From contig CANHTA010000001.1 in the NCBI GenBank assembly GCA_947463135.1, positions 44,332 through 108,331 of the forward strand: 64,000 nt of DNA. The letters run 5' to 3'. Below the pieces are notes generated by a model. It saw only the letters and a list, made by a program, of their open reading frames with translations. It was not told the origin of the DNA and made no database searches. The translations under genes were made by a program, and so were the position numbers. The stretch comes from Gemmatimonadota bacterium (GTDB lineage Bacteria; Gemmatimonadota; Gemmatimonadetes; Gemmatimonadales; Gemmatimonadaceae). Positions 36,128-61,218 of the stretch are shown here, one piece after another (the stretch's first letter is position 1; every line of letters begins with the position of its first letter).

Positions 36128-36331
36128 GGCGGGCGGTGCGACGGGGGAAACGACGGGAGCGGTAAAGATGGCTCCAACGGAGGCGCTTTCACCAGCAGCG
36201 GCACCGAGCCCCGGCGCGGGGTGTGGTAAACGGGGCAGCGTGCCGCGATCTTTGGGGCGGTAGAGGTCGGCCATGGCGCGTGCTACAGGAGCCGCCCCAT
36301 GATTCACCGCAGCGGTTGGGGTACAGGGGCT

Positions 36332-37303
36332 ATGAGCAGGATCTCGTGCGGGTTGTTTCGGGGCGGCATGGCCCTTCTGGTGGGAACGGTACTCACGGCG
36401 ATCGGTCCGACGCCGCTCACGGCACAGCGCCCTGCTCCCGCTGATCCCATCACCGCGCGCCTCATGCAGCGCTTGGGCGCATTGGCGGCCGATAGCATGG
36501 AAGGGCGCCGTGCCGGTACTGCCGGTTCAGCCCGGGCGCGGGCATGGATCGTGGCGGAACTGACCGCTATGGGCGCCAAACCCGTCGGTGCCAGCTACGC
36601 CATGCCAATTGCGCTGCGCCCAAGGGCTGGCAGTGACTCGGTGGGTGCCAACATTGTGGCTCGCATTCCCGGCAAACAGGCGACAGGACCCGTACTCGTG
36701 CTGAGCGCGCACTACGATCATCTTGGCGTGCGCAACGGGGAGGTGTTTAACGGGGCCGACGACGACGCAAGCGGCTGCGTGGCGCTCCTCACCATCGCCG
36801 AGCGATTGCTGCGCGAGCCGCCTGAGCATGATGTCCTGTTGGCATTCTTCGACGCCGAGGAGTCGGGGCTGGTGGGTGCACAGGCGTTTGTGAATGCGCC
36901 GCCGGTGCCGCTGGAGCGCGTGGCCGCGAACATCAATCTCGACATGGTGGCGCGGCAGGATGGCAAGGCGCTGTGGGTGGCGGGCACGTCGCATACCCCG
37001 CAGCTCCGGCCAGTGGCGGAACCCGTCGCGAAGCGCGCAGCGATCCCTATTCGCTTCGGGCACGATACCAAGGAGCTCAAGCCGGGCGATGACTGGACCG
37101 GGTCGTCGGACCATGCGGCGTTTCACCGCAAAGGCATTCCCTTTCTCTATCTGGGCGTTGAGGATCACGCTGACTACCACAAGTCGGGTGACGATGCCGA
37201 TAAGGTGGACCCCACCTTTTTTCGGGGCTCGGTAGAGTTTGCCTACGCCCTGGTTCGGGCCGTGGATGCCACGCTCAGCACCCTGAGGCGGTCGCCGGGG
37301 TAA
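36332..37303 (+). CDS. M28 family metallopeptidase
   Basis: Motifs DSMEGRRAGT, LSAHYDHLG, NGADDDASG, FDAEESGLVG, SDHAAF and DYHKSGD. Confidence 0.9.
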   Translation: MSRISCGLFRGGMALLVGTVLTAIGPTPLTAQRPAPADPITARLMQRLGALAADSMEGRRAGTAGSARARAWIVAELTAMGAKPVGASYAMPIALRPRAGSDSVGANIVARIPGKQATGPVLVLSAHYDHLGVRNGEVFNGADDDASGCVALLTIAERLLREPPEHDVLLAFFDAEESGLVGAQAFVNAPPVPLERVAANINLDMVARQDGKALWVAGTSHTPQLRPVAEPVAKRAAIPIRFGHDTKELKPGDDWTGSSDHAAFHRKGIPFLYLGVEDHADYHKSGDDADKVDPTFFRGSVEFAYALVRAVDATLSTLRRSPG

Positions 37304-37330
37304 GCGCGGCCATCGGTTGTACAAAACGGA

Positions 37331-37368
37331 AGAAGGGCCGCGCCGGATTTCTCCGTTGCGGCCCTTCT
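37331..37368. terminator. intrinsic terminator hairpin (U-tract on minus strand)
   Basis: agaagggccgc (37331-37341) pairs with gcggcccttct (37358-37368). The minus strand continues ttccgttttgt. Confidence 0.75.
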
Positions 37369-37410
37369 GACTCCTTGCCGGTTCGAAACGATCCCGAACC
37401 GGTAAACCCG

Positions 37411-37476
37411 TTACCGGGCGTCGATCAGGAGATCGGTTGCCCAGGACGAACCGGCAAAGGAACTATGACTAGACAA
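37411..37476 (-). CDS. small ORF, 21 aa (MSSHSSFAGSSWATDLLIDAR)
   Basis: AGGAGGTGATC (11-nt complement of the 16S 3' tail, 37489-37479) precedes TTG 37476. TAA at 37413-37411. Has its own promoter-like and terminator elements. Confidence 0.6.
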   Translation of the reverse strand: MSSHSSFAGSSWATDLLIDAR

Positions 37477-37604
37477 ATGATCACCTCCTCGAAATAGGGT
37501 GGGACTTCGGGCGTACTGATACCGAGATCCAACAGGAGCGTTCTCAGCCGCTTGGAGACTGTGAACGCGTGAACGTGGCGTGGTCGCTCCTCCGCGCCGC
37601 CTCC

Positions 37605-37633
37605 ATGGTAGGGTCCCGAGGGCCTGAGGGCAA
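37605..37633 (-). promoter_or_regulatory. sigma70-type promoter for the small transcript
   Basis: TTGCCC (37633-37628), 17-nt spacer, TACCAT (37610-37605) on the minus strand. Confidence 0.55.
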
Positions 37634-37722
37634 GCGGGAAATGCGGGAAGAATCTCCGCGGCATACGTTTCAGTCACCCAGTTCCGCGCTGGATTTTCCC
37701 GGTTCCCCTCAAGAGCTCGGCT

Positions 37723-39936
37723 ATGCCCATCCCCTCTTCTCGCCACCGACTGCGCCCCTTGGCGGCCTGCACGGCCCTCCTGGCGGCTGCGACAGGTCCC
37801 GTTGTGCCAGCCTCCCTCGCCGCGCAGGCGTCGATGACCATGCCGGCAGCGTCCACGCCGCCGAAGGCGCCGCGCGCCATGGTGCTCTCCGATTGGTATC
37901 GCCTCACCACCGTGAGCAGTCCCGCCGTGTCGCCCGACGGCAAGCGGGTGGCGATGACGGTGACCAAGGCGGTTGATGCAGAGAACAAGCGCCACAGTGA
38001 GATCTGGGTGGTGAATACCGCCGGTGGCGCGCCGCAACGCTGGACGTCCCCAAGCACGGAAAGCAGCAATCCGCGCTGGTCGCCCGACGGCCGGTACCTC
38101 TTCTTCACCTCGCCGCGCCCCGGCGGAAAGGGGAATACGTGGGCCATCCGCTTGGACGAGCCGAGTGGCGAAGCCGTCCAGGTGGCGAGCTACCCGAACG
38201 GGTCCATGCCGTCTGATGGTGCGTTTGCGGTTTTCACTGATCCGGCCCCCCGCGACACCGCGACCGGCGCCAGCAGTACGCCGTTTGCCCGCATGCAGCC
38301 CATGGCCAAACCACCCTTCGCGGCACTTACCCGTCCCGTGGAGCCGGCCCGCTTTGATGGGCGCCACGTGACAGACATGTCGTACAAGGTGAACGGCGTC
38401 GGCTTTGTCCCGGGACGTGCCGAGGCGCGCAGTTGGCGCCCGGCGCAGCTGTGGCGGCAGCCGGTTGGCGATACGGCCAAGCGTCAGCTCACCGCCACAG
38501 CGTATTCCCACCGCTCACCGGAGGTCTCACCCGACGGCAAGTGGATTGCGTTCATTGCCGACGCGCGCCTCCGTGCGGATTCCGTGGTGGATCTCGAGCG
38601 CGACTCGCTCGCCACGTTGCCGTATGACAAGGTTCGCGATGAAGCCGATCGGAACGACACCGATCTCTACGTGGTGGCGAGCACCGGCGGTACGCCGCGC
38701 AAGGTGAGCGACTGGATGGGCGCCGAGTCGGACATCACCTGGTCGCCCGACAGCAAGCAGCTGGCGTTCGTGGGCCGTCCGTCACGCACGAAGTCGGCCC
38801 GGATCTATGTTGTGGACATGGCCGGCGGGACGCCGCGCAATCTCCTCGGCGACTGGCAGTTCGAGCCGGGTTCGCTCGCATGGCTCACCACGGGGCACCT
38901 CCAGTTCGCCGCGGACATTGGTGGACGCACGGCGATTCTGCGCGCCGACCTCACCGGCAAGAGTGCGCCGAAGGAATTGGTCGGCGGCCGTCGTCAGCTG
39001 CGTGGCGCGAGCTACGACGCTGCGGCCAAGGTGATGGCGTATACGTCGACGTCGATGACGAAGCCCACGGAGCTGTTCGTGGCCACGGCCGACGGCATGG
39101 GGGAGCGTCAACTCACGCACTTCAATGACGACGTGAACAAGGACGTGGCGTGGAGTGATGCCGAGCGCTTCACGTACAAGAGCGTCGGGAATCTGGAAAT
39201 CGAAGGGTGGTTGATGAAGCCCTACGGATACACGCCGGGCAAGAAGTATCCCATGGTGATCTACATTCACGGTGGGCCGCACTCGGCGTATGGGGAAGGC
39301 TGGTTTGACGAATTCCAGAATCTCGCTGCGCAAGGCATGTTCGTGCTGTTCACCAATCCGCGTGGGTCGAGCGGCTATGGCGCCGACTTCACCTACAGCA
39401 CGCGTGGACGCTGGGGCATGGAAGACTACGACGACCTCATGAAGGCCGTCGATATCGTTGCTGCGCGTCCCGACGTGGACAGCACGAAGATGGGAGCAAC
39501 CGGTGGGTCGTACGGCGGCTTCATGACCACGTGGATTGCCACCAAAACCGATCGCTTCAAGGCCATCCAGACCGATCGGACCATCACGGACTGGACCTAT
39601 TGGTATGGCAGCAGCGACGCGCAGGGGCTCACGGAATTTGAGTTCTACGGCAAGCCGTGGGACAATCAGGCGTTGTACGACACGCTGTCGCCGATCCGCT
39701 ATGTGCAGAAGGTGAAGACGCCGATGTTGCTGGTGCAGAGTGAAGAAGATCACCGCACGCCAATGGGGAGTGCGGAGATCTGGTTCATGTCACTCAAGAA
39801 ACAGGGCGTGCCGGTGGAGATGGTGCGGTACCCGCGCTCCAATCATGATCTCTCCCGTACCGGCGAGCCGTGGTTGCTGGTTGATCGGTTGGGGCGGATC
39901 CGCCAGTGGTTCGCGTACTGGCTGCAGGGGATGTAA
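37723..39936 (+). CDS. S9 family peptidase (acylaminoacyl/dipeptidyl peptidase)
   Basis: Signal peptide and SPDGK propeller repeats. Motifs YIHGGPH, NPRGSSGYG, GGSYGG, EEDHRTP and SNHDL. Confidence 0.92.
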   Translation: MPIPSSRHRLRPLAACTALLAAATGPVVPASLAAQASMTMPAASTPPKAPRAMVLSDWYRLTTVSSPAVSPDGKRVAMTVTKAVDAENKRHSEIWVVNTAGGAPQRWTSPSTESSNPRWSPDGRYLFFTSPRPGGKGNTWAIRLDEPSGEAVQVASYPNGSMPSDGAFAVFTDPAPRDTATGASSTPFARMQPMAKPPFAALTRPVEPARFDGRHVTDMSYKVNGVGFVPGRAEARSWRPAQLWRQPVGDTAKRQLTATAYSHRSPEVSPDGKWIAFIADARLRADSVVDLERDSLATLPYDKVRDEADRNDTDLYVVASTGGTPRKVSDWMGAESDITWSPDSKQLAFVGRPSRTKSARIYVVDMAGGTPRNLLGDWQFEPGSLAWLTTGHLQFAADIGGRTAILRADLTGKSAPKELVGGRRQLRGASYDAAAKVMAYTSTSMTKPTELFVATADGMGERQLTHFNDDVNKDVAWSDAERFTYKSVGNLEIEGWLMKPYGYTPGKKYPMVIYIHGGPHSAYGEGWFDEFQNLAAQGMFVLFTNPRGSSGYGADFTYSTRGRWGMEDYDDLMKAVDIVAARPDVDSTKMGATGGSYGGFMTTWIATKTDRFKAIQTDRTITDWTYWYGSSDAQGLTEFEFYGKPWDNQALYDTLSPIRYVQKVKTPMLLVQSEEDHRTPMGSAEIWFMSLKKQGVPVEMVRYPRSNHDLSRTGEPWLLVDRLGRIRQWFAYWLQGM

Positions 39937-40750: not shown

Positions 40751-43700
40751 TCACGGCCGCAGCACAACGGTCTCCGCCGTGCGCGCCTTCACCGCGGCCG
40801 GCGAATACGGCAACGGCGCATACGCTCCCCGGGCCCACGGCCCGAAGAGATTGCTGTAATACGGACTTCGTGGATCGCCACTCTGCCCCGGCGTGTTGGT
40901 GACCATGGCGCCGTCCCAGTTGGCGAGATCCATCACCACGCGAAAGCTGGCGCCGGCGGTCTGGTTGTCGCTGTTGCCGGTGGCGTTGAGGGTGTTGGCA
41001 TAGCCGCCGCGGGGCAGCGGTCCCGGTGACAGGCGCGCGCGCAGCGAGTCGGCGATCACCACGTCGAGCGGATGCGCGATGCGCGCGTGGTGCATCTTGG
41101 CGTCGCCGTAGCGCCAGTCGGCGATATCCTTGCCGAAGCGACGCGACAAATCCGACACCGCTTCGTTGAACGCGCGGAAGAGAATGAAATCGCGCGCCAC
41201 GGTGGGGTTTTCGCCCAGGAGCGAGTCCGGGTTCGTGAGCCACTCGATGGTCTGCGCCAGTGACACCGTGCGCAGCAGCGGACGCGCCGTGAGCGGCAGC
41301 ACGATGTCGGCCGTATGCGTGAGCAGCTTGCGCTCCCACGCCGCGTACACCGCCGCACCGCGCGAGTTCGCCGACAGCACACCATTCCACGCCAGCAACG
41401 TGTCGCGTGCCGCGATCGACGCGGCGTTGGTCAGCGCGATCTGCTTAATGAGCGGCACCAGCGCCCGCGCAGCCAGCGCCGTTTCGTCATGCTGCAGGGC
41501 CATCATCTGCGCGAGCGTCGCGCGGCGCGTGGTGTCGAGCACTTCCAGCAGGCGGTCGCGACGGAACGGCTCCGCCCAAGTGCGCGCCAGCGCGTTGGCG
41601 TTGGGGTACGACGCCTCCACGTTGAGCGCGTTGGCGGTGCCCACGTAGCCGCGCGACGGCGACGTCTCGTGCGGCAGCTGCGGAATGGGCAGGAAACCGC
41701 TCCACTCGAACCGTCCGTCACCCGGCACCGGTAGCAGGCCGTCCCAGTTCTTGCGGATCGGAGCGATGCCGGCGCTCTGCCACCCAATGGCCCCGCTGGT
41801 GTCGGCCCAGATCCAGTTCAGCGCCGGCATCCGCGCGAACGACAGCGCCGCGCGTGCCTCGCTCCACGTACGCGCCTGATCGAGACGCAAACTGGCGAGA
41901 TACGGGGCGCCACCGGGTTCCAGCCACGCGGCGCGCAATGCGACCGCCACGCGCTTCTCGCGGTCGATCATCAGCACGGGACCATGCCGCGTGTACTGCA
42001 GTGTGACCACCACGGGCGCCGTGGCGCCCTTCACGCGAATGGTGTCACGGATCTCGCGCAGGCGCTCGCTCGCTCCGCGATAGCGGTACGCCCGCGCGTC
42101 GTTCGCGTCGAGTTCGTACGTGTACAGGTCCTCGGCATCAATGCCGAAAATGGTCAGCCCCCACGCCGCGTGCTGGTTGTGCCCGATCGCTACGCCAGGA
42201 ATGGCCGGCTCACCGCCGCCGATCACGTCCCACCCCGGCGCCTTCAGATGCACCATGTAGCGCAACGATGGCGTGGCAATCGTGCGATGCGGGTCGTTCG
42301 CTACGATCGGCTTGCCGCTGGCGGTGCGTGACCCGGCAATGACCCAGTTGTTGCTCTCCCAGCGATCGAAGCTCGGTGTGCTGGTATCAGCCGCTGCCGC
42401 TGTGCGACGCAGCGACTCGGGGAGCTCGGCGGCGCGGAACGTCGGTGCCTGCTTGAAGTCGTTGTAGGCCGCCAGCATGCTCGCCCCCGGCGCGGCGTCG
42501 AGCGCGCGCGCCACCAGCGAGTCGAGCCCGAGGCGTACCGGCGAGAGTTCGTAGCGCCGGCGACGAGCAACGGCGTCCTCGCCGATCTCACGCACCGCAC
42601 GCGCGGTGGTTGGTTCGTCGGCCGCGTTCGAAGCCAGCGCGTTGTGCCGCGAGATCACCACCGCCGGCGTCCAGTGCTGCGGCGTGATCCCCAGCCACGT
42701 GAGTTCGGGCGGCATCAAGGCCGGATTGGCGCGCACCTGATCGACATACGCGTTCACCCCGTCCACAAACGCCCCGATGATCGAGGCGCCGCGCGGATGA
42801 TAGTGCGCCAGCTCGGTGGTCATCGAGCCGCGATAGCGCAGCAACCGCGACGCCCGATCACGCGACACCCAGCGCGGGCCCAGCACCTCCGCCATCGTAC
42901 CGGTTGCCTGTCGCCGCCACAGCTCCAGTTGAAAGAGCCGGTCGCGTGCCGCGCTGTAGCCCTGCGCGAAGAACAAGTCGTGCTCGTTCGCCGCCTCGAT
43001 GTGCACAATGCCCGCCGAGTCCCGCGCCAAGGTCACCGGCGCGCGCAGCCCCTTGGCGGTGATCGCTTGAGCCTGTAGCGCTGACGACCCGCTGAGCAAC
43101 AGCGCCAGCACGAGCATCGCCTGCACAGCCGTTCCCTTCAACGCACTCGCGAATTCACGCACAATGTCTCCGGCAGGTTTGATGTCATGAATGGCGTCCA
43201 CGCTGCGCCCAGCCTGCCAATAGTCCTGCGTAGCCCCATCCACGCTGGAGCGCTTGAGCTGCCGCAGCGAGCGCAGCGCATAAAAGGTGCGAATCCAGTG
43301 CTTCGTCTTTCGCCCCTTGAACAGCCAGCGGGACATCGGTCCCACCTTGGTGCCCAGCTTCTCCACGTAGGGGGTACGGATCACCGACACCGGGACGCCC
43401 GTGAGTCGTTCGGTGAGCACGATATCGCGGGAGTGCGCTTCTACGATGGCGTACTTGTAGGCGTCGTCGGAGTTGCATTCCGGCGTGGCAATAAAGCGGG
43501 TGCCCAGCTGCACACCGGCATAGCCCATCTCGATGAGCGCCTTGAACTGCGCGGGGGCACCCACGCCACCGGCCGCAACCACGGGGAGTCCGAGCACGCC
43601 AACCTCATCGAGGAGCGCGCGTGGGTCACGTGAGCCGGTGTGCCCGCCCGCCTCACGGTTCACCGCCACCAGACCGTCCACGCCGCCATCACGTCCTTTC

Positions 43701-44140
43701 TGCGCCCACTTCAACTCGGTGACGTCGTGGTACACCACGCCCCCTGCGGCATGAACGCGGTCGCACACCCACTTGGGGTTGCCCAGCGAAGTGAGAAAGA
43801 ACCGCACGCCTTCCTCGAGCGCAATGTCCACCCACTTGGTCATGCGGTTGTGATACGTTTTCGAGGAGGCCTCGATGAGCGCATTGAAGCCAATCGGCGC
43901 ACCGCCGCTCAACCGGTTGATGGTGCGCAACCCGTCGCGGAAGTCGTAGCCGTGTACGTAGGTGAGCGCGATGGGCTGTACGATGCCAAGCGCTCCCGCT
44001 GCGCTCACCGCCGCCACCAGCTCCGGGTTGCTGCACGGATACATCGGGCCGCAGATCAGCGGGACACGAATGTGGGCATGTCGCGTGAGCGCCGTGTCGA
44101 AGGCCGGTGTGTGCACCAGCGATGGGACCGCGTTGGTCAT
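40751..44140 (-). CDS. single ORF fusing a nitronate monooxygenase-like flavoprotein (N-term) to a penicillin acylase-family Ntn hydrolase (C-term)
   Basis: NMO motifs ICGPM, AVNREAGGH, VAAGG and VQLGTRFIAT.EC. Acylase motifs GIVHIEA..DLFFAQGY..ARDRLFQ, SNNWVIAG...ANDPH and PGQSG. No stop codon between the two parts. Confidence 0.85.
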   Translation of the reverse strand: MTNAVPSLVHTPAFDTALTRHAHIRVPLICGPMYPCSNPELVAAVSAAGALGIVQPIALTYVHGYDFRDGLRTINRLSGGAPIGFNALIEASSKTYHNRMTKWVDIALEEGVRFFLTSLGNPKWVCDRVHAAGGVVYHDVTELKWAQKGRDGGVDGLVAVNREAGGHTGSRDPRALLDEVGVLGLPVVAAGGVGAPAQFKALIEMGYAGVQLGTRFIATPECNSDDAYKYAIVEAHSRDIVLTERLTGVPVSVIRTPYVEKLGTKVGPMSRWLFKGRKTKHWIRTFYALRSLRQLKRSSVDGATQDYWQAGRSVDAIHDIKPAGDIVREFASALKGTAVQAMLVLALLLSGSSALQAQAITAKGLRAPVTLARDSAGIVHIEAANEHDLFFAQGYSAARDRLFQLELWRRQATGTMAEVLGPRWVSRDRASRLLRYRGSMTTELAHYHPRGASIIGAFVDGVNAYVDQVRANPALMPPELTWLGITPQHWTPAVVISRHNALASNAADEPTTARAVREIGEDAVARRRRYELSPVRLGLDSLVARALDAAPGASMLAAYNDFKQAPTFRAAELPESLRRTAAAADTSTPSFDRWESNNWVIAGSRTASGKPIVANDPHRTIATPSLRYMVHLKAPGWDVIGGGEPAIPGVAIGHNQHAAWGLTIFGIDAEDLYTYELDANDARAYRYRGASERLREIRDTIRVKGATAPVVVTLQYTRHGPVLMIDREKRVAVALRAAWLEPGGAPYLASLRLDQARTWSEARAALSFARMPALNWIWADTSGAIGWQSAGIAPIRKNWDGLLPVPGDGRFEWSGFLPIPQLPHETSPSRGYVGTANALNVEASYPNANALARTWAEPFRRDRLLEVLDTTRRATLAQMMALQHDETALAARALVPLIKQIALTNAASIAARDTLLAWNGVLSANSRGAAVYAAWERKLLTHTADIVLPLTARPLLRTVSLAQTIEWLTNPDSLLGENPTVARDFILFRAFNEAVSDLSRRFGKDIADWRYGDAKMHHARIAHPLDVVIADSLRARLSPGPLPRGGYANTLNATGNSDNQTAGASFRVVMDLANWDGAMVTNTPGQSGDPRSPYYSNLFGPWARGAYAPLPYSPAAVKARTAETVVLRP

Positions 44141-44643
44141 CGGGTGGTCTCGCGGGTAGGGTCGGGCGGGGAGAGGCGCCAGTGCACAAGGCACCGCGCC
44201 ACCACCTCGCCCTCGGCGTTCACGATGTCGGCCTGCACGTCATGCGTCATCGGTTCGGGTACCGCGCTCGGGGGCTGCGCCGTGGTGGTACACACCAACG
44301 TCCCGCGCGCCTTCTTGAGGTAGGAAATCGACAGGCCGGTGACGATACCACGCACCCCCGGAGGAAGCGCCGTGAGGAGCGCCACCCCGCTCGTCATTTC
44401 GGCCAGATTGACCAGCGCCACGGCGTGCACCGACGCGAGATGATTGCGCACCGCCCGCCGGTCTCGAAGCTCCACCCGGGCGAACCCGGCGCGCACCTCG
44501 GTATACACCCCGCCAACGGAACCGGTATAGGGCGCCGCTCGCCCCACCCCCCAGCTGAAGAGGCGTTTCCCGAAGGGGAGTCGAGAGAGACGATCCCACG
44601 TGCGCAGGATCTGGCGGCCCGGGGAGGGAGTGGCGCGAGGCAT
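44137..44643 (-). CDS. hotdog-fold PaaI/DUF4442 thioesterase
   Basis: Motifs APYTGS, NHLASVHAVALVNLAE and ISYLKKARG. Stop overlaps the NMO start. Confidence 0.85.
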   Translation of the reverse strand: MPRATPSPGRQILRTWDRLSRLPFGKRLFSWGVGRAAPYTGSVGGVYTEVRAGFARVELRDRRAVRNHLASVHAVALVNLAEMTSGVALLTALPPGVRGIVTGLSISYLKKARGTLVCTTTAQPPSAVPEPMTHDVQADIVNAEGEVVARCLVHWRLSPPDPTRETTR

Positions 44644-57858: not shown

Positions 57859-57924
57859 CGTCGCGTGTGGGCCCTGTACCCTCCGTTTCTCCGTTTGACT
57901 GACCGCTCCGAGTTCTCCGCTCTC

Positions 57925-60900
57925 ATGACTGCACCGCAGGACACTGTGTCGTATCCGCTGCTTCCCGACTCGGGCGCTGACGCCTTCGAGCAAGAGCTGC
58001 TCGTGCGCTGGAGCGCCGAGCAGCTGTTCGAACAGGTACAGGCCGCCCGCGCGGGCGCCACGCCGTTCGTGTTTTTTGAAGGGCCGCCCACCGCGAATGG
58101 TCGTCCCGGCATTCACCACGTGTTCTCACGCACCATTAAGGACCTCTTTTGCCGCCATCGGGCGATGCAGGGGTACTTCGTGCCGCGAAAGGCGGGGTGG
58201 GACACGCACGGCCTGCCGGTGGAGATTGAAGTGGAGAAGGAGCTGCAGCGCGAAGCTGCGGCGCAACAGGGCGTCGACCCATCCGACATCGCCAAGCTTG
58301 GCGGCAAGCAGCTCATCGAACAGACGGGCGTGGCGGAATTCAACCGTCGCTGCCGTGAGAGTGTGTTCAAGTATCGGGGCGACTGGGAGAAGCTGTCGCA
58401 GCGCACCGCGTACTGGTTGGACTACGGCGATCCCTATGTCACCTACTCACATAACTTTGTCGAGTCGGTGTGGTGGGCATTACGCACTCTGCATGAGAAG
58501 TCATTGTTGGTGCGTGGTCACAAAATTCTGCCGTATTGTGCCCGCTGCGGAACCGCCCTCTCCAGTCATGAAGTCGCGCAGGGCTATGACGACGTGGACG
58601 ATCCGAGCGTGTACGTGGCGCTCGATCTGCTCGATGCACAGGGGAACGCACCGGCGCAGCGGCGTCGTATTCTGGTATGGACAACGACCCCGTGGACACT
58701 GGTGTCGAACACGGCGCTGGCGGTGCATCCCACGCTGTCGTATGTCGAGCTCCGCAAGAAAACCGGCGCGGAGTGGACGATCCTCTTGGCCGAAGCGCGT
58801 GTGCCGGGTGTGCTCGGCGCCGATTGGGCCGATCGGTGGGAGGTGACCGCCCAGATGGCGGGAGCGGCGCTCTCCGGATTGCGCTATCGCCGCCCGTTGG
58901 ATTGGGTCCCGTATCCCGACGAGGGCCGTCATGAGGTCATCGTCACCGAAGACTTTGTGAGCGCTGAGGACGGGAGCGGCGTGGTGCATATGGCGCCGGC
59001 CTTCGGCGCCGATGACTACGCGGCGGGGCAGCGCCATGGGCTCGCCTTTCTGCAGCCCGTCACCGTGCGCGGGGAATTCAGCGACGACGTCCCGGAAGTG
59101 GGCGGCCTGTTTGTGAAGCAGGCGGACGCCCGCATTCTCGAGGTGCTCCGTGAGCGTGATGTGCTTTGGAAGGCCAGTACCTTCACGCACGCGTATCCAC
59201 ACTGCTGGCGCTGCGGCACACCGCTGCTGTATTACGCCCGCGGATCGTGGTTTGTGCGCACCACCGCCGTGCGTGACAGCCTCATGGCACGGAATGCCGC
59301 CGTGGATTGGCATCCCGACGAAGTTGGCACCGGTCGATTTGGGGAGTGGCTGGCCAATAACGTGGACTGGGCCATTTCGCGTGACCGCTATTGGGGCACA
59401 CCGCTCCCCGTGTGGGTGAACGATGAGGATGCCTCGGAGATCGAGGTCATCGGGAGCTACGCCGATCTGGCGGCACGCATCGGGCGGCCGTTGCCCGACG
59501 ACTTTGATCCGCACAAGCCGCACATCGACCAGTACACGTGGCCGGCTCCCTCAGGTCGGGGCACCATGCGGCGCGTCCCGGAAGTGATCGACACGTGGTT
59601 CGACTCGGGCTCCATGCCCTTTGCGCAGTGGCACTATCCGTTTGAAAATCGCGAGACGGTGGCCGCGCAGTTCCCGGCCGACTTCATCTGCGAGGGTGTT
59701 GATCAGACGCGAGGCTGGTTTTACTCGCTGCTGGCCATTGCCACGGGGTTGGGTGACGCGCTGCCCAACAACGCCGATGGCACGGCGGCCCCGTATCGGC
59801 ATGTTGTGGTCAACGATCTGGTGCTCGATGCGCAGGGCCAGAAGATGTCCAAGAGCAAGGGGAACACCGTTGATCCGTGGCAGGTGCTGGAGCGGCATGG
59901 CGCCGATGCGGTGCGTCTGTTTCTGGTGGCCACCAGTCAGGTGTGGGTGCCGCGAAGGTTCGATGAGAACGCCATCCGTGAAACGGCCGGGCGATTCCTG
60001 CTCACTTTCCGGAACGTGTACAACGGCATCTTCGCGCAGTACGCCAACTTCGGGTGGACGCCCAGCGCGCTCGATCCCGCAGTCGCCGATCGGCCGGCGC
60101 TCGACCGTTGGATTCTGTCGCGTCTCTCGCGGGTGGAGGCCGAGGTGGATCAGCATCTCACCCACTACGACGCGACCTTGGCGGCGCGGCGGGTGATGCA
60201 GTTTATGGATGATGACGTGTCGAAGTGGTACGTCCGTTTGTCGCGTGCGCGCTTTTACGCCATCGAGACCGGCGACAGCCGCGCGGCCTTCGCCACCTTG
60301 CATGAAGTCCTGGCCGTCACCTGTCGGTTGTTGGCCCCGTTTGCGCCCTTCATGACCGATGCGGTGCATCGGGCGCTCACCGGCACCTCGGTTCACCTGG
60401 CGTCGTACACCCGGGCGCACCCAACTCCGGTGGATGAGACGCTTGAGGCGGCGATGGACGAGATCCGGACGCTGGCGGGACTGGCCCGGGCGGCCCGCGA
60501 TGTGGCGGAGATCAACGTGCGACAGCCGCTGCTCTCGGTACAATGCGTGGTGCCCGGGAACCCCGGACCGGCCTCGGAGCTGGGCGCGCTGCTGGCCTCG
60601 GAAATCAACGTGAAACAGGTCGAGTTTGTGAGCTCAACCGACGCGTTGGTGTCGCTGGAGGTGAAGGGCAATTTCCGCACCCTTGGCAAGAAATTCGGGA
60701 AGGAAACCCCCCTCGTTGCGGCGGCCGTGCCGAACATGCCCGTCGAGCTCATCCGTGCCTTGGCGGGTGGCGAATCGGTCACAATCGAGGTGGAGGGGGT
60801 TCCGCGCTTGATTGCCCCCGACGACGTTGCCATCATCCGACGCGCCTCCGGCGCCGCCGTGGTGCAGGAGCATGGCGGCTTCGGGGTGGCGCTCGATCCA

Positions 60901-61218
60901 ACCATGACCCCCGCGTTACGGGCCGAAGGGTTGGCACGCGAAGTGATCAGTAAAGTGCAGCGGTTCCGGAAAGAGGCGCAGTTGGAGGTGAGTGACCGTA
61001 TCGCGGTGGCGATTGCCGGTGATGCGGAGTTGGAGGGCGCTGTGGCCACGCACCGTGATCACATCGCTGACGAGGTGCTGGCCGTGCGATTGGTGCTCGG
61101 CACGGAGGCTGGCTCGCCGTTCCATGAAAATGGCAACGGTTCCACGTGGACCGCGATGCAGGTGGTGGACGTCGATGGACGTTCGATCCGCCTCGCGCTC
61201 ACCAAGGAAGGGTCGTAA
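57925..61218 (+). CDS. ileS: isoleucyl-tRNA synthetase (type 2, long form)
   Basis: Motifs EGPPTANG.PG.HH, GWDTHGLPVE, WTTTPWTL, DWAISRDRYWGTP, EGVDQTRGWFY and KMSKS. Confidence 0.96.
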   Translation: MTAPQDTVSYPLLPDSGADAFEQELLVRWSAEQLFEQVQAARAGATPFVFFEGPPTANGRPGIHHVFSRTIKDLFCRHRAMQGYFVPRKAGWDTHGLPVEIEVEKELQREAAAQQGVDPSDIAKLGGKQLIEQTGVAEFNRRCRESVFKYRGDWEKLSQRTAYWLDYGDPYVTYSHNFVESVWWALRTLHEKSLLVRGHKILPYCARCGTALSSHEVAQGYDDVDDPSVYVALDLLDAQGNAPAQRRRILVWTTTPWTLVSNTALAVHPTLSYVELRKKTGAEWTILLAEARVPGVLGADWADRWEVTAQMAGAALSGLRYRRPLDWVPYPDEGRHEVIVTEDFVSAEDGSGVVHMAPAFGADDYAAGQRHGLAFLQPVTVRGEFSDDVPEVGGLFVKQADARILEVLRERDVLWKASTFTHAYPHCWRCGTPLLYYARGSWFVRTTAVRDSLMARNAAVDWHPDEVGTGRFGEWLANNVDWAISRDRYWGTPLPVWVNDEDASEIEVIGSYADLAARIGRPLPDDFDPHKPHIDQYTWPAPSGRGTMRRVPEVIDTWFDSGSMPFAQWHYPFENRETVAAQFPADFICEGVDQTRGWFYSLLAIATGLGDALPNNADGTAAPYRHVVVNDLVLDAQGQKMSKSKGNTVDPWQVLERHGADAVRLFLVATSQVWVPRRFDENAIRETAGRFLLTFRNVYNGIFAQYANFGWTPSALDPAVADRPALDRWILSRLSRVEAEVDQHLTHYDATLAARRVMQFMDDDVSKWYVRLSRARFYAIETGDSRAAFATLHEVLAVTCRLLAPFAPFMTDAVHRALTGTSVHLASYTRAHPTPVDETLEAAMDEIRTLAGLARAARDVAEINVRQPLLSVQCVVPGNPGPASELGALLASEINVKQVEFVSSTDALVSLEVKGNFRTLGKKFGKETPLVAAAVPNMPVELIRALAGGESVTIEVEGVPRLIAPDDVAIIRRASGAAVVQEHGGFGVALDPTMTPALRAEGLAREVISKVQRFRKEAQLEVSDRIAVAIAGDAELEGAVATHRDHIADEVLAVRLVLGTEAGSPFHENGNGSTWTAMQVVDVDGRSIRLALTKEGS

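Follow-up and report, generated by a model that had tools for sequence, protein, structure and literature searches.

The stretch of DNA analysed here (hereafter the window) comprises 64,000 nucleotides (nt) of contig CANHTA010000001.1 from assembly GCA_947463135.1, which belongs to a member of the Gemmatimonadaceae. On its minus strand, at 37322-37633, it carries a short element that occupies most of the 419-nt gap between two plus-strand genes. The convergent neighbour (36299-37303) encodes an M28 peptidase, and the divergent neighbour (37723-39936) a secreted protein of the S9 prolyl-oligopeptidase family. The conservation, structure and expression of the element leave little doubt that it is a real, expressed and structured RNA gene of a new family, which has not been described before and is restricted to the Gemmatimonadaceae on present sampling. 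An original prediction, made from the letters of the sequence, had described the unit as a promoter, a leader, an extended Shine-Dalgarno (SD) sequence, a mini-open reading frame (mini-ORF), a post-stop hairpin and an intrinsic terminator, and all of these features are indeed present. Its parts are the following, with (−) denoting the minus strand:

37322-37598 (−): whole transcription unit of ~277 nt, bounded by the predicted +1 and the last nucleotide of the terminator tail, based on promoter and terminator conservation and on transcript contigs

37605-37633 (−): sigma-70-like promoter, predicted from conservation, with TTGCCC at 37633-37628, a 17-nt spacer and TACCAT at 37610-37605

37577-37598 (−): H1, the 5'-terminal hairpin with the loop (A/U)GGAGCG(A/G), based on its invariant loop and compensatory stem changes

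37502-37576 (−): variable leader (~75 nt), including hairpin H3 at 37502-37530

37496-37501 (−): CACCCU, a local candidate segment for masking the SD, based on pairing compatibility

37479-37489 (−): extended SD AGGAGGTGATC, complementary to the 3' tail of 16S rRNA, with GGAGGTGA at 37481-37488

37411-37476 (−): mini-ORF, with TTG at 37476-37474, 20 codons and TAA at 37413-37411, encoding the peptide MSSHSSFAGSSWATDLLIDAR

37447-37460 (−): segment A, the 5' arm of the long-range helix P1, covering codons 6-10, based on covariation

37414-37444 (−): helix P2 (CUGGGC with GCCCGG), around P3

37422-37435 (−): hairpin P3 (CGAUC-UCCU-GAUCG), holding the anti-SD-like GAUCUCCU

37434-37427 (−): anti-SD-like GATCTCCT

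37407-37418 (−): hairpin CCCG-GUAA-CGGG, whose loop contains the stop codon, paired in 99% of the alignment cells

37395-37402 (−): segment B (CCGGUUCG), invariant, the alternative partner of segment C

37373-37385 (−): segment C (CGAACCGGCAAGG), the 3' arm common to P1 (A:C) and to the B:C hairpin

37402-37378 (−): post-stop hairpin (B:C)

37322-37367 (−): intrinsic terminator, with a stem of GAAGGGCCGC and GCGGCCCUUC (hairpin 37367-37332) followed by UUCCGUUUU

H1 starts at the expected +1, GGAGG is separated from the TTG start by 7 nt, and the 11-nt complementarity between the ORF and the region beyond its stop codon (37457-37447 versus 37385-37375) is present. These features go beyond chance expectation: the fold z-score is -3.9, and the pattern of the core occurs once in the window, compared with an expectation of 0. 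A consensus-based promoter and terminator scanner flagged neither of the two signals, the promoter giving 8/12 matches and the terminator stem being interrupted, so both calls are derived from conservation and covariation.

To follow the element across genomes, orthologous loci were retrieved with the M28 protein from metagenome-assembled Gemmatimonadaceae genomes (63-80% amino-acid identity), and scanning metagenome contigs for exact matches to the pattern of the invariant core yielded 24 further stretches. The sample from Gemmatimonadaceae genomes and metagenomes amounted to 43 complete copies, which contain 26 unique ORFs and 32 unique cores. In the closest clade, the intergenic DNA is 79-89% identical over ~400 nt, as against 63-80% identity for the flanking M28 protein, and a core of ~190 nt is recognizable in every clade that carries the element. 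Across the 43 complete copies, the intergenic region is conserved far above the synonymous sites of the flanking genes. The ORF nucleotides of the window are 100% identical to those of two other loci (L006 and L010), in which the synonymous sites of the M28 and S9 genes are only 0.45-0.62 identical, that is, essentially saturated. Among 20 homologues, the -35 sequence TTGC and the -10 sequence TA(G/C)CAT are nearly invariant and their spacing is fixed. The stem of H1 has undergone compensatory changes (CGC/GCG to CAC/GTG and to TGC/GCA) around an invariant loop, and among 104 loci this hairpin was found solely in the element described here. The terminator stem is maintained through compensatory and G·U changes, with an inner part that is clade-specific. 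The leader varies in length as well as sequence and is missing from two loci (L029 and L095), in which H1 almost abuts the SD region.

The element is present as a single copy in the window, and a covariance model (R1) detected no second copy or distant homologue in the window and 58 other loci, which included Longimicrobiales, Acidobacteriota and others beside M28 homologues. On present sampling, it was found only in the Gemmatimonadaceae, one type of copy (L007) being assigned to a cultured relative, Gemmatimonas phototrophica.

The element nearly always lies between the M28 and S9 genes, and its terminator hairpin is located 24 nt past the M28 stop codon. Both observations would suit a cis-acting or antisense element that serves its neighbours, either as a bidirectional terminator or 3'-overlap regulator of the M28 gene or by interfering with the S9 promoter. 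However, the unit persists where the S9 gene (L020, L021) or the M28 gene (L086, L104) has been replaced, and it therefore constitutes an autonomous unit. Moreover, neither gene includes the conserved core, both mRNAs are far less abundant than the RNA of the element, and crude RNAduplex predictions against the S9 and M28 start regions were no better than those for shuffled sequences and produced unrealistic whole-length duplexes. Hence, a role in the control of its neighbours appears improbable.

Three further observations concern the surroundings of the element. In L086, which lacks the M28 gene, a 731-amino-acid (aa) ORF with a signal-peptide-like start follows 13 nt after the terminator tail (~10703, minus strand), the sole case seen of a same-strand gene directly downstream. 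In L013, five tandem units of ~20 nt (GTAGGAAGTACYTTRGAAN) lie at ~2190-2310 on the minus strand, between the S9 start and a remnant of the element, at the position where other genomes have its promoter and H1. In the window, the segment from the -35 box to the S9 start (37634-37722) is well conserved in L001-L011, too (for example GAAAAGTACCGATCTGTGATAGA on the minus strand); it presumably contains an operator or the promoter of the divergent S9 gene.

The sequence of the element is present in many freshwater and river metatranscriptomes, with dozens of RNA sequencing runs beyond the eight examined here. In 8/8 of these freshwater metatranscriptomes, it is represented by a single contig of 203-229 nt, reaching from 37358/37378 to 37579/37590 and including neither the flanks nor the neighbouring genes. 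Adapter sequence abuts position 37583 in one run and position 37371 in another. When four runs were compared over 20 kb, the element was the only fully matching transcript in three of them, and in the fourth (X29) its contig had a depth of at least 36, compared with 2.6-5.6 for the neighbouring genes across these 20 kb. The element thus gives rise to a discrete and abundant small RNA (sRNA) whose limits match the predicted promoter and terminator, and the stand-alone transcription unit of ~275 nt that had been proposed for it is borne out by the conservation of these two signals and by contigs confined to the element. The exact transcript ends are approximate, because the contigs carry no strand information and stop inside the two terminal hairpins, as is typical of k-mer assemblies.

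RNAalifold analysis and explicit pair counting on 30 unique cores support a domain of three helices, P1, P2 and P3. P1 connects segment A (37460-37447) with segment C (37385-37373) through 13 pairs. In three of these, both partners have changed, with U-A replaced by C-G in nine sequences at one pair, G-C by A-U in a single sequence at another and U-A by C-G in two sequences at the third. The covariation score of P1 was reached by 0/500 shuffles. The stems of P2 and P3 are invariant or changed on one side only, and the CCCG-GUAA-CGGG hairpin around the stop codon competes with P2 for GCCCGG. Segment C can alternatively pair with segment B (37402-37395 with 37385-37378). This B:C helix is paired in 96.3% of the cells, with G·U pairs wherever C has changed, as segment B (CCGGTTC) never varies and C has undergone only transitions, all of which B can accommodate in this way. 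The idea that the same 3' arm pairs either with a partner inside the ORF or with one beyond its stop codon is therefore upheld by compensatory changes in A:C and by the compatibility of the changes in C with an invariant B. When either helix was forced, the difference between the predicted ensemble energies of the A:C and B:C forms was -2.6 +/- 2.1 kcal/mol for 35 homologues, and for the window it was -0.9 kcal/mol. These values are close enough to make a two-state RNA plausible. Neither A nor B nor C shares a nucleotide with the terminator stem (37367-37332), which is formed in either state.

The pair counts also bear on the polarity of the RNA. G·U cells greatly outnumber A·C cells (42 versus 6), which identifies the minus strand as that of the functional RNA. 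On this ground, a plus-strand reading as the 5' untranslated region (UTR) of the S9 gene or the 3' UTR of the M28 gene was rejected, and also because the contigs end 130 nt before the S9 start and both the promoter and the terminator have the orientation of the minus strand. By inspection, segment B does not qualify as a T-loop or tRNA mimic either, since the equivalent of the conserved A58 is missing.

The SD motif GGAGGTGA, its 7-nt spacing, the TTG start, the length of 21 codons and a TAA or TAG stop are found in 43/43 copies, and there is no indel in the frame or the conserved block of any of them. This perfect preservation, together with the largely conserved C-terminal two thirds of the peptide, would be expected if the RNA were the mRNA of a functional 21-aa micro-protein (motif AGSxWAxDLLIxAR) whose message happens to be highly structured. 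The substitution pattern, however, shows no excess of synonymous changes. Variable sites are distributed 11/10/10 over the three codon positions, and the summed minor alleles (70/67/41) reveal that third positions vary least. Third-position (synonymous) identity in the ORF amounts to 0.71-1.00, as opposed to 0.37-0.62 in the flanking genes, and eight degenerate codons of the conserved part never vary, although the synonymous sites of the neighbours are saturated. The hypervariable sites coincide with unpaired RNA linkers, namely all three bases of codon 14, position 2 of codon 19 and the first base of the P3 loop (codon 16, position 2), and give rise to radical replacements (T/H/R/N/A/C/S; D/G/A/V; L/H/R). 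Thus, the changes of L to H/R and of D to G/A/V fall on unpaired nucleotides, and that of W to R improves an RNA pair by turning the U·G pair of P2 into C-G. The lack of codon periodicity, the low variability of third positions and the radical replacements at unpaired nucleotides indicate that selection acts on the RNA rather than the peptide. Furthermore, the peptide has no match in Pfam or NCBIfam, and the core is lost in some lineages. A micro-protein is thus unlikely, and so is the small-protein system envisaged in the original prediction, as the peptide is not under amino-acid-level selection.

Two other coding interpretations were discarded. The peptide is no candidate precursor of a ribosomally synthesized and post-translationally modified peptide for the adjacent peptidases, both of which have signal peptides that it lacks, nor does it show protein-level selection. 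A 79-aa ORF (37425-37664) and the +1 frame (...EEVIICLVIVPLPV...) have starts that differ or are missing, as well as indels upstream, and are open only because the nucleotides are conserved. What the frame does retain are signals for the ribosome. Apart from the invariant SD at optimal spacing, the U and A of the stop codon are invariant and A-to-G is the sole change at its third base, in contrast to the free variation of the adjacent loop bases. An SD that is kept in place and a stop that changes only to another stop favour use by ribosomes, which we regard as suggestive rather than decisive.

The SD itself is unusual. The motif GGAGGTGA is invariant in all copies, and the 11-mer AGGAGGTGATC is confined to this element, both in the window and across the related loci. 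A published table lists the Gemmatimonadetes at 22, which we take to mean that 22% of genes have an SD, and gives AGGAGGUGA as their class-specific SD (PMC10783764). In a crude survey of 11 confident genes of the window, SD matches ranged from 0 to 6 nt. The 11-nt SD of the element is an outlier. Separately, the 8-mer GGAGGTGA is found five times in the window, compared with 1.6 expected occurrences. Three of these lie inside a single 1120-aa ORF (57859-61218), within 58839-60991 on the plus strand, and mostly explain this mild excess.

Two segments may mask the SD in cis. CACCCU, just upstream, is able to pair with GG(A)GGUG of the SD in 92.6% of the cells, and GAUCNCCU, inside the frame, can pair with the SD in 87.5% and would then form a pseudoknot with P1 and P2. 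The predicted probability of the SD being paired is ~0.75. Of the two anti-SD segments proposed previously, GATCTCCT at 37434-37427 is present and forms part of P3; by contrast, CTCCT at 37538-37534 is not conserved in relatives and was dropped, although it is a perfect complement of the H1 loop in the window. The outer UCGA:UCGA extension of the SD/anti-SD helix, seen in the minimum-free-energy fold of the window, was discarded as well, since the aligned sequences, as judged by reading them, have lost it without compensation in the L015, L017 and L022 clades.

Searches at the gathering thresholds of Rfam 15 gave no match in the whole window or in 10 homologous loci, in line with the suggestion that the element belongs to no described family, and Rfam matches with E values of up to 10 were terminator-like or due to chance. 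ARAGORN identified no tRNA or transfer-messenger RNA (tmRNA) in the window. A tmRNA consists of a tRNA-like domain and a tag ORF without an SD or start codon, and this class was rejected for an element that has both an SD and a TTG start. More instructive are the dual-function sRNAs, such as SgrS/SgrT, RNAIII/hld and SR1/SR1P. Like these, the element is a discrete and abundant transcript with its own promoter and terminator and a short ORF with a ribosome-binding site. In contrast to them, its peptide shows no purifying selection at the amino-acid level, and the ORF lies within the conserved structure instead of beside it. In leader-peptide attenuators (trpL, hisL, pheL, and rnTrpL of Sinorhizobium as a released form that acts in trans), as in the element, a distal part of the ORF (here A) competes with another segment (B) for a common partner (C). 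Unlike in attenuators, the terminator is separate from the competing segments, so that there is no competition between a terminator and an antiterminator, the unit is free-standing, conserved regulatory codons are absent, and the next gene is the convergent M28 gene, with a same-strand ORF only in L086. By analogy, its mode of action would be closest to that of a leader-peptide switch and its appearance to that of a dual-function sRNA, although it departs from both in defining traits.

Type I toxin mRNAs (hok, tisB, aapA1), with which the original prediction had drawn a parallel, have masked SDs and metastable folds, combining a strong SD that has anti-SD partners in cis with long-range alternative pairing. 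They encode small hydrophobic, membrane-active peptides and are multicopy or patchy in distribution. The element resembles them, and attenuators, in having a short ORF behind a strong SD, with candidate partners for masking in cis, and in the long-range alternative pairing of a segment of this ORF. Yet, its peptide is hydrophilic and not conserved as a protein, with no hydrophobic stretch longer than LLI in MSSHSSFAGSSWATDLLIDAR or its 25 variants, which leaves the toxin reading unsupported. In addition, the element is single-copy, vertically inherited in strict synteny and constitutively abundant at the RNA level, it has no runs of regulatory codons, A, B and C face no competition from its terminator, and a downstream gene is usually absent. 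A toxin mRNA or a leftover leader-peptide attenuator is therefore the least probable of the readings considered, and very improbable in itself. Sponge RNAs of the CsrB/Rsm type display many repeated GGA motifs in hairpin loops, and the element does not fit this class, as only its H1 loop (AGGAGCGA) presents a GGA in a hairpin loop.

A further parallel comes from the Flavobacteriia, in which most mRNAs lack an SD and rpsU, which has an extended one, is preferentially translated by ribosomes devoid of bS21 (PMC9976891, PMC13000453). The element shares with flavobacterial rpsU an unusually long, high-information SD in an SD-poor lineage and could, on this account, possibly read the state of the 16S rRNA 3' tail. 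Unlike rpsU, it encodes no ribosomal protein, and the Gemmatimonadota are unmentioned in the literature on flavobacterial anti-SD sequestration (PMC9976891, PMC13000453). We regard this parallel as a conceptual lead, not as a test.

Given the above, we tentatively favour a model, without calling it probable, in which ribosome docking on the non-coding mini-ORF, or its translation, switches the fold between A:C and B:C. The core may then be viewed as a ribosome-docking module placed directly 5' of a bistable fold. The extended SD (11 nt, matching the 16S tail) and the TTG lie 16 nt upstream of the GC-rich P1/P2/P3 domain, which holds the rest of the frame, and P1, starting 16 nt after the start codon, would be positioned roughly at the leading edge of an initiating ribosome. 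Without a ribosome on the frame, A and C would form P1 and leave the invariant segment B single-stranded. A ribosome that initiates and reads through would unwind A, and C could then pair with B. Since A lies in the ORF and competes with B for C, the position of the ribosome should decide the fold. The occupancy of a mini-ORF that encodes nothing useful would thus set the fold, and the fold in turn the exposure of B and of the anti-SD-like P3 loop, with the cis anti-SD segments CACCCU (upstream) and GAUCNCCU (in frame) potentially gating access to the SD. Candidate outputs include pairing of B in trans, protein binding and control of the stability of the RNA itself.

Several points weigh against this model. 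With the terminator lying outside the switch and no gene following, the sequence does not reveal any output. The B:C helix shows no compensatory change, as B is invariant, and neither of the two SD-masking pairings covaries, which the invariance of the SD precludes. An SD-like motif with a start and an open frame of 21 codons is expected by chance in roughly 1/10 cases, and the conservation of the frame carries little independent weight, since there is no indel anywhere in the conserved block; from the column frequencies, we estimate that the variable codons 2-7 would contain only ~0.04 in-frame stops per sequence, so that none is to be expected in any case. Moreover, the transcript data consist of unstranded assembled contigs. 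Finally, there are short forms of the element on the minus strands of three loci. L014 (5030-5190) and L028 (3020-3230) still have the promoter, H1 (a variant of it in L028) and the terminator, but their core is gone in its entirety, from the SD and the ORF to P1/P2/P3, and L013 (2090-2190) retains only the 3' part, consisting of an H3-like piece and the terminator. Some lineages can thus do without the core, and the main function, or a separate one, may reside in H1.

Those short forms that have H1 but not the ORF are readily accommodated by the main rival of the switch model, a purely non-coding regulatory RNA with an incidental frame, which is possible and nearly as likely as the switch itself. 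In such an RNA, the H1 loop AGGAGCG and GGAGGUGAUC would serve as binding sites and the P1/P2/P3 domain as a scaffold, with the 16S 3' tail or the 30S subunit (as a decoy or sponge), a CsrA-type GGA-binding protein or C/U-rich target RNAs as candidate partners. RNA constraints alone fully explain the substitution pattern, the two SD-like motifs are the most conserved unpaired elements, and the abundance of the RNA resembles that of sponge RNAs. On the other hand, the exact 7-nt spacing to an invariant start and a stop that changes only to another stop each require a separate explanation. In addition, the RNA contains only ~3 conserved GGA motifs, one of them in a hairpin loop, which is about as many as the ~5 that, by our own estimate, would arise by chance in a GC-rich RNA of 277 nt.

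It is also conceivable, but rather unlikely, that the element acts as a ribosome-directed sensor or decoy, with the 11-nt SD and the mini-ORF being read by 30S subunits or 70S ribosomes purely as an input. As a sensor, it would translate the status of free ribosomes or free anti-SD sequences into the exposure of B or the anti-SD-like loop; as a decoy, it would titrate SD-competent ribosomes in a phylum in which most genes lack an SD. In either case, the element would represent a trans-acting switch responding to translation status, with no encoded product and no gene regulated in cis.

Apart from the element, the window contains a single 1147-aa frame on the minus strand (40751-44194), with a nitronate-monooxygenase-like N-terminal half and a penicillin-acylase-like C-terminal half. 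It has a signal-peptide-like stretch in mid-frame, and in L021 the monooxygenase-like gene occurs alone (371 aa). This could be a fusion, or else two genes that share a frame with no stop codon between them.

The Gemmatimonadota are widespread in lakes and soils. Our survey of the literature on sRNAs and RNA motifs of Gemmatimonas and the Gemmatimonadota found no regulatory RNA described for the phylum. The sRNA reported here, which is absent from Rfam, ranks with the most abundant transcripts of Gemmatimonadaceae that can be detected in natural freshwater metatranscriptomes. It displays an unusual mix of features that normally belong to different RNA classes, combining a maximal SD in a lineage that uses this signal sparingly with a frame-perfect mini-ORF devoid of peptide selection and two competing conserved pairings. 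If the occupancy of the mini-ORF indeed sets the fold, the element would provide a free-standing case of translation being used as a signal rather than for its product. Even on a conservative reading, it constitutes a well-supported new sRNA family, for which a covariance model is ready.

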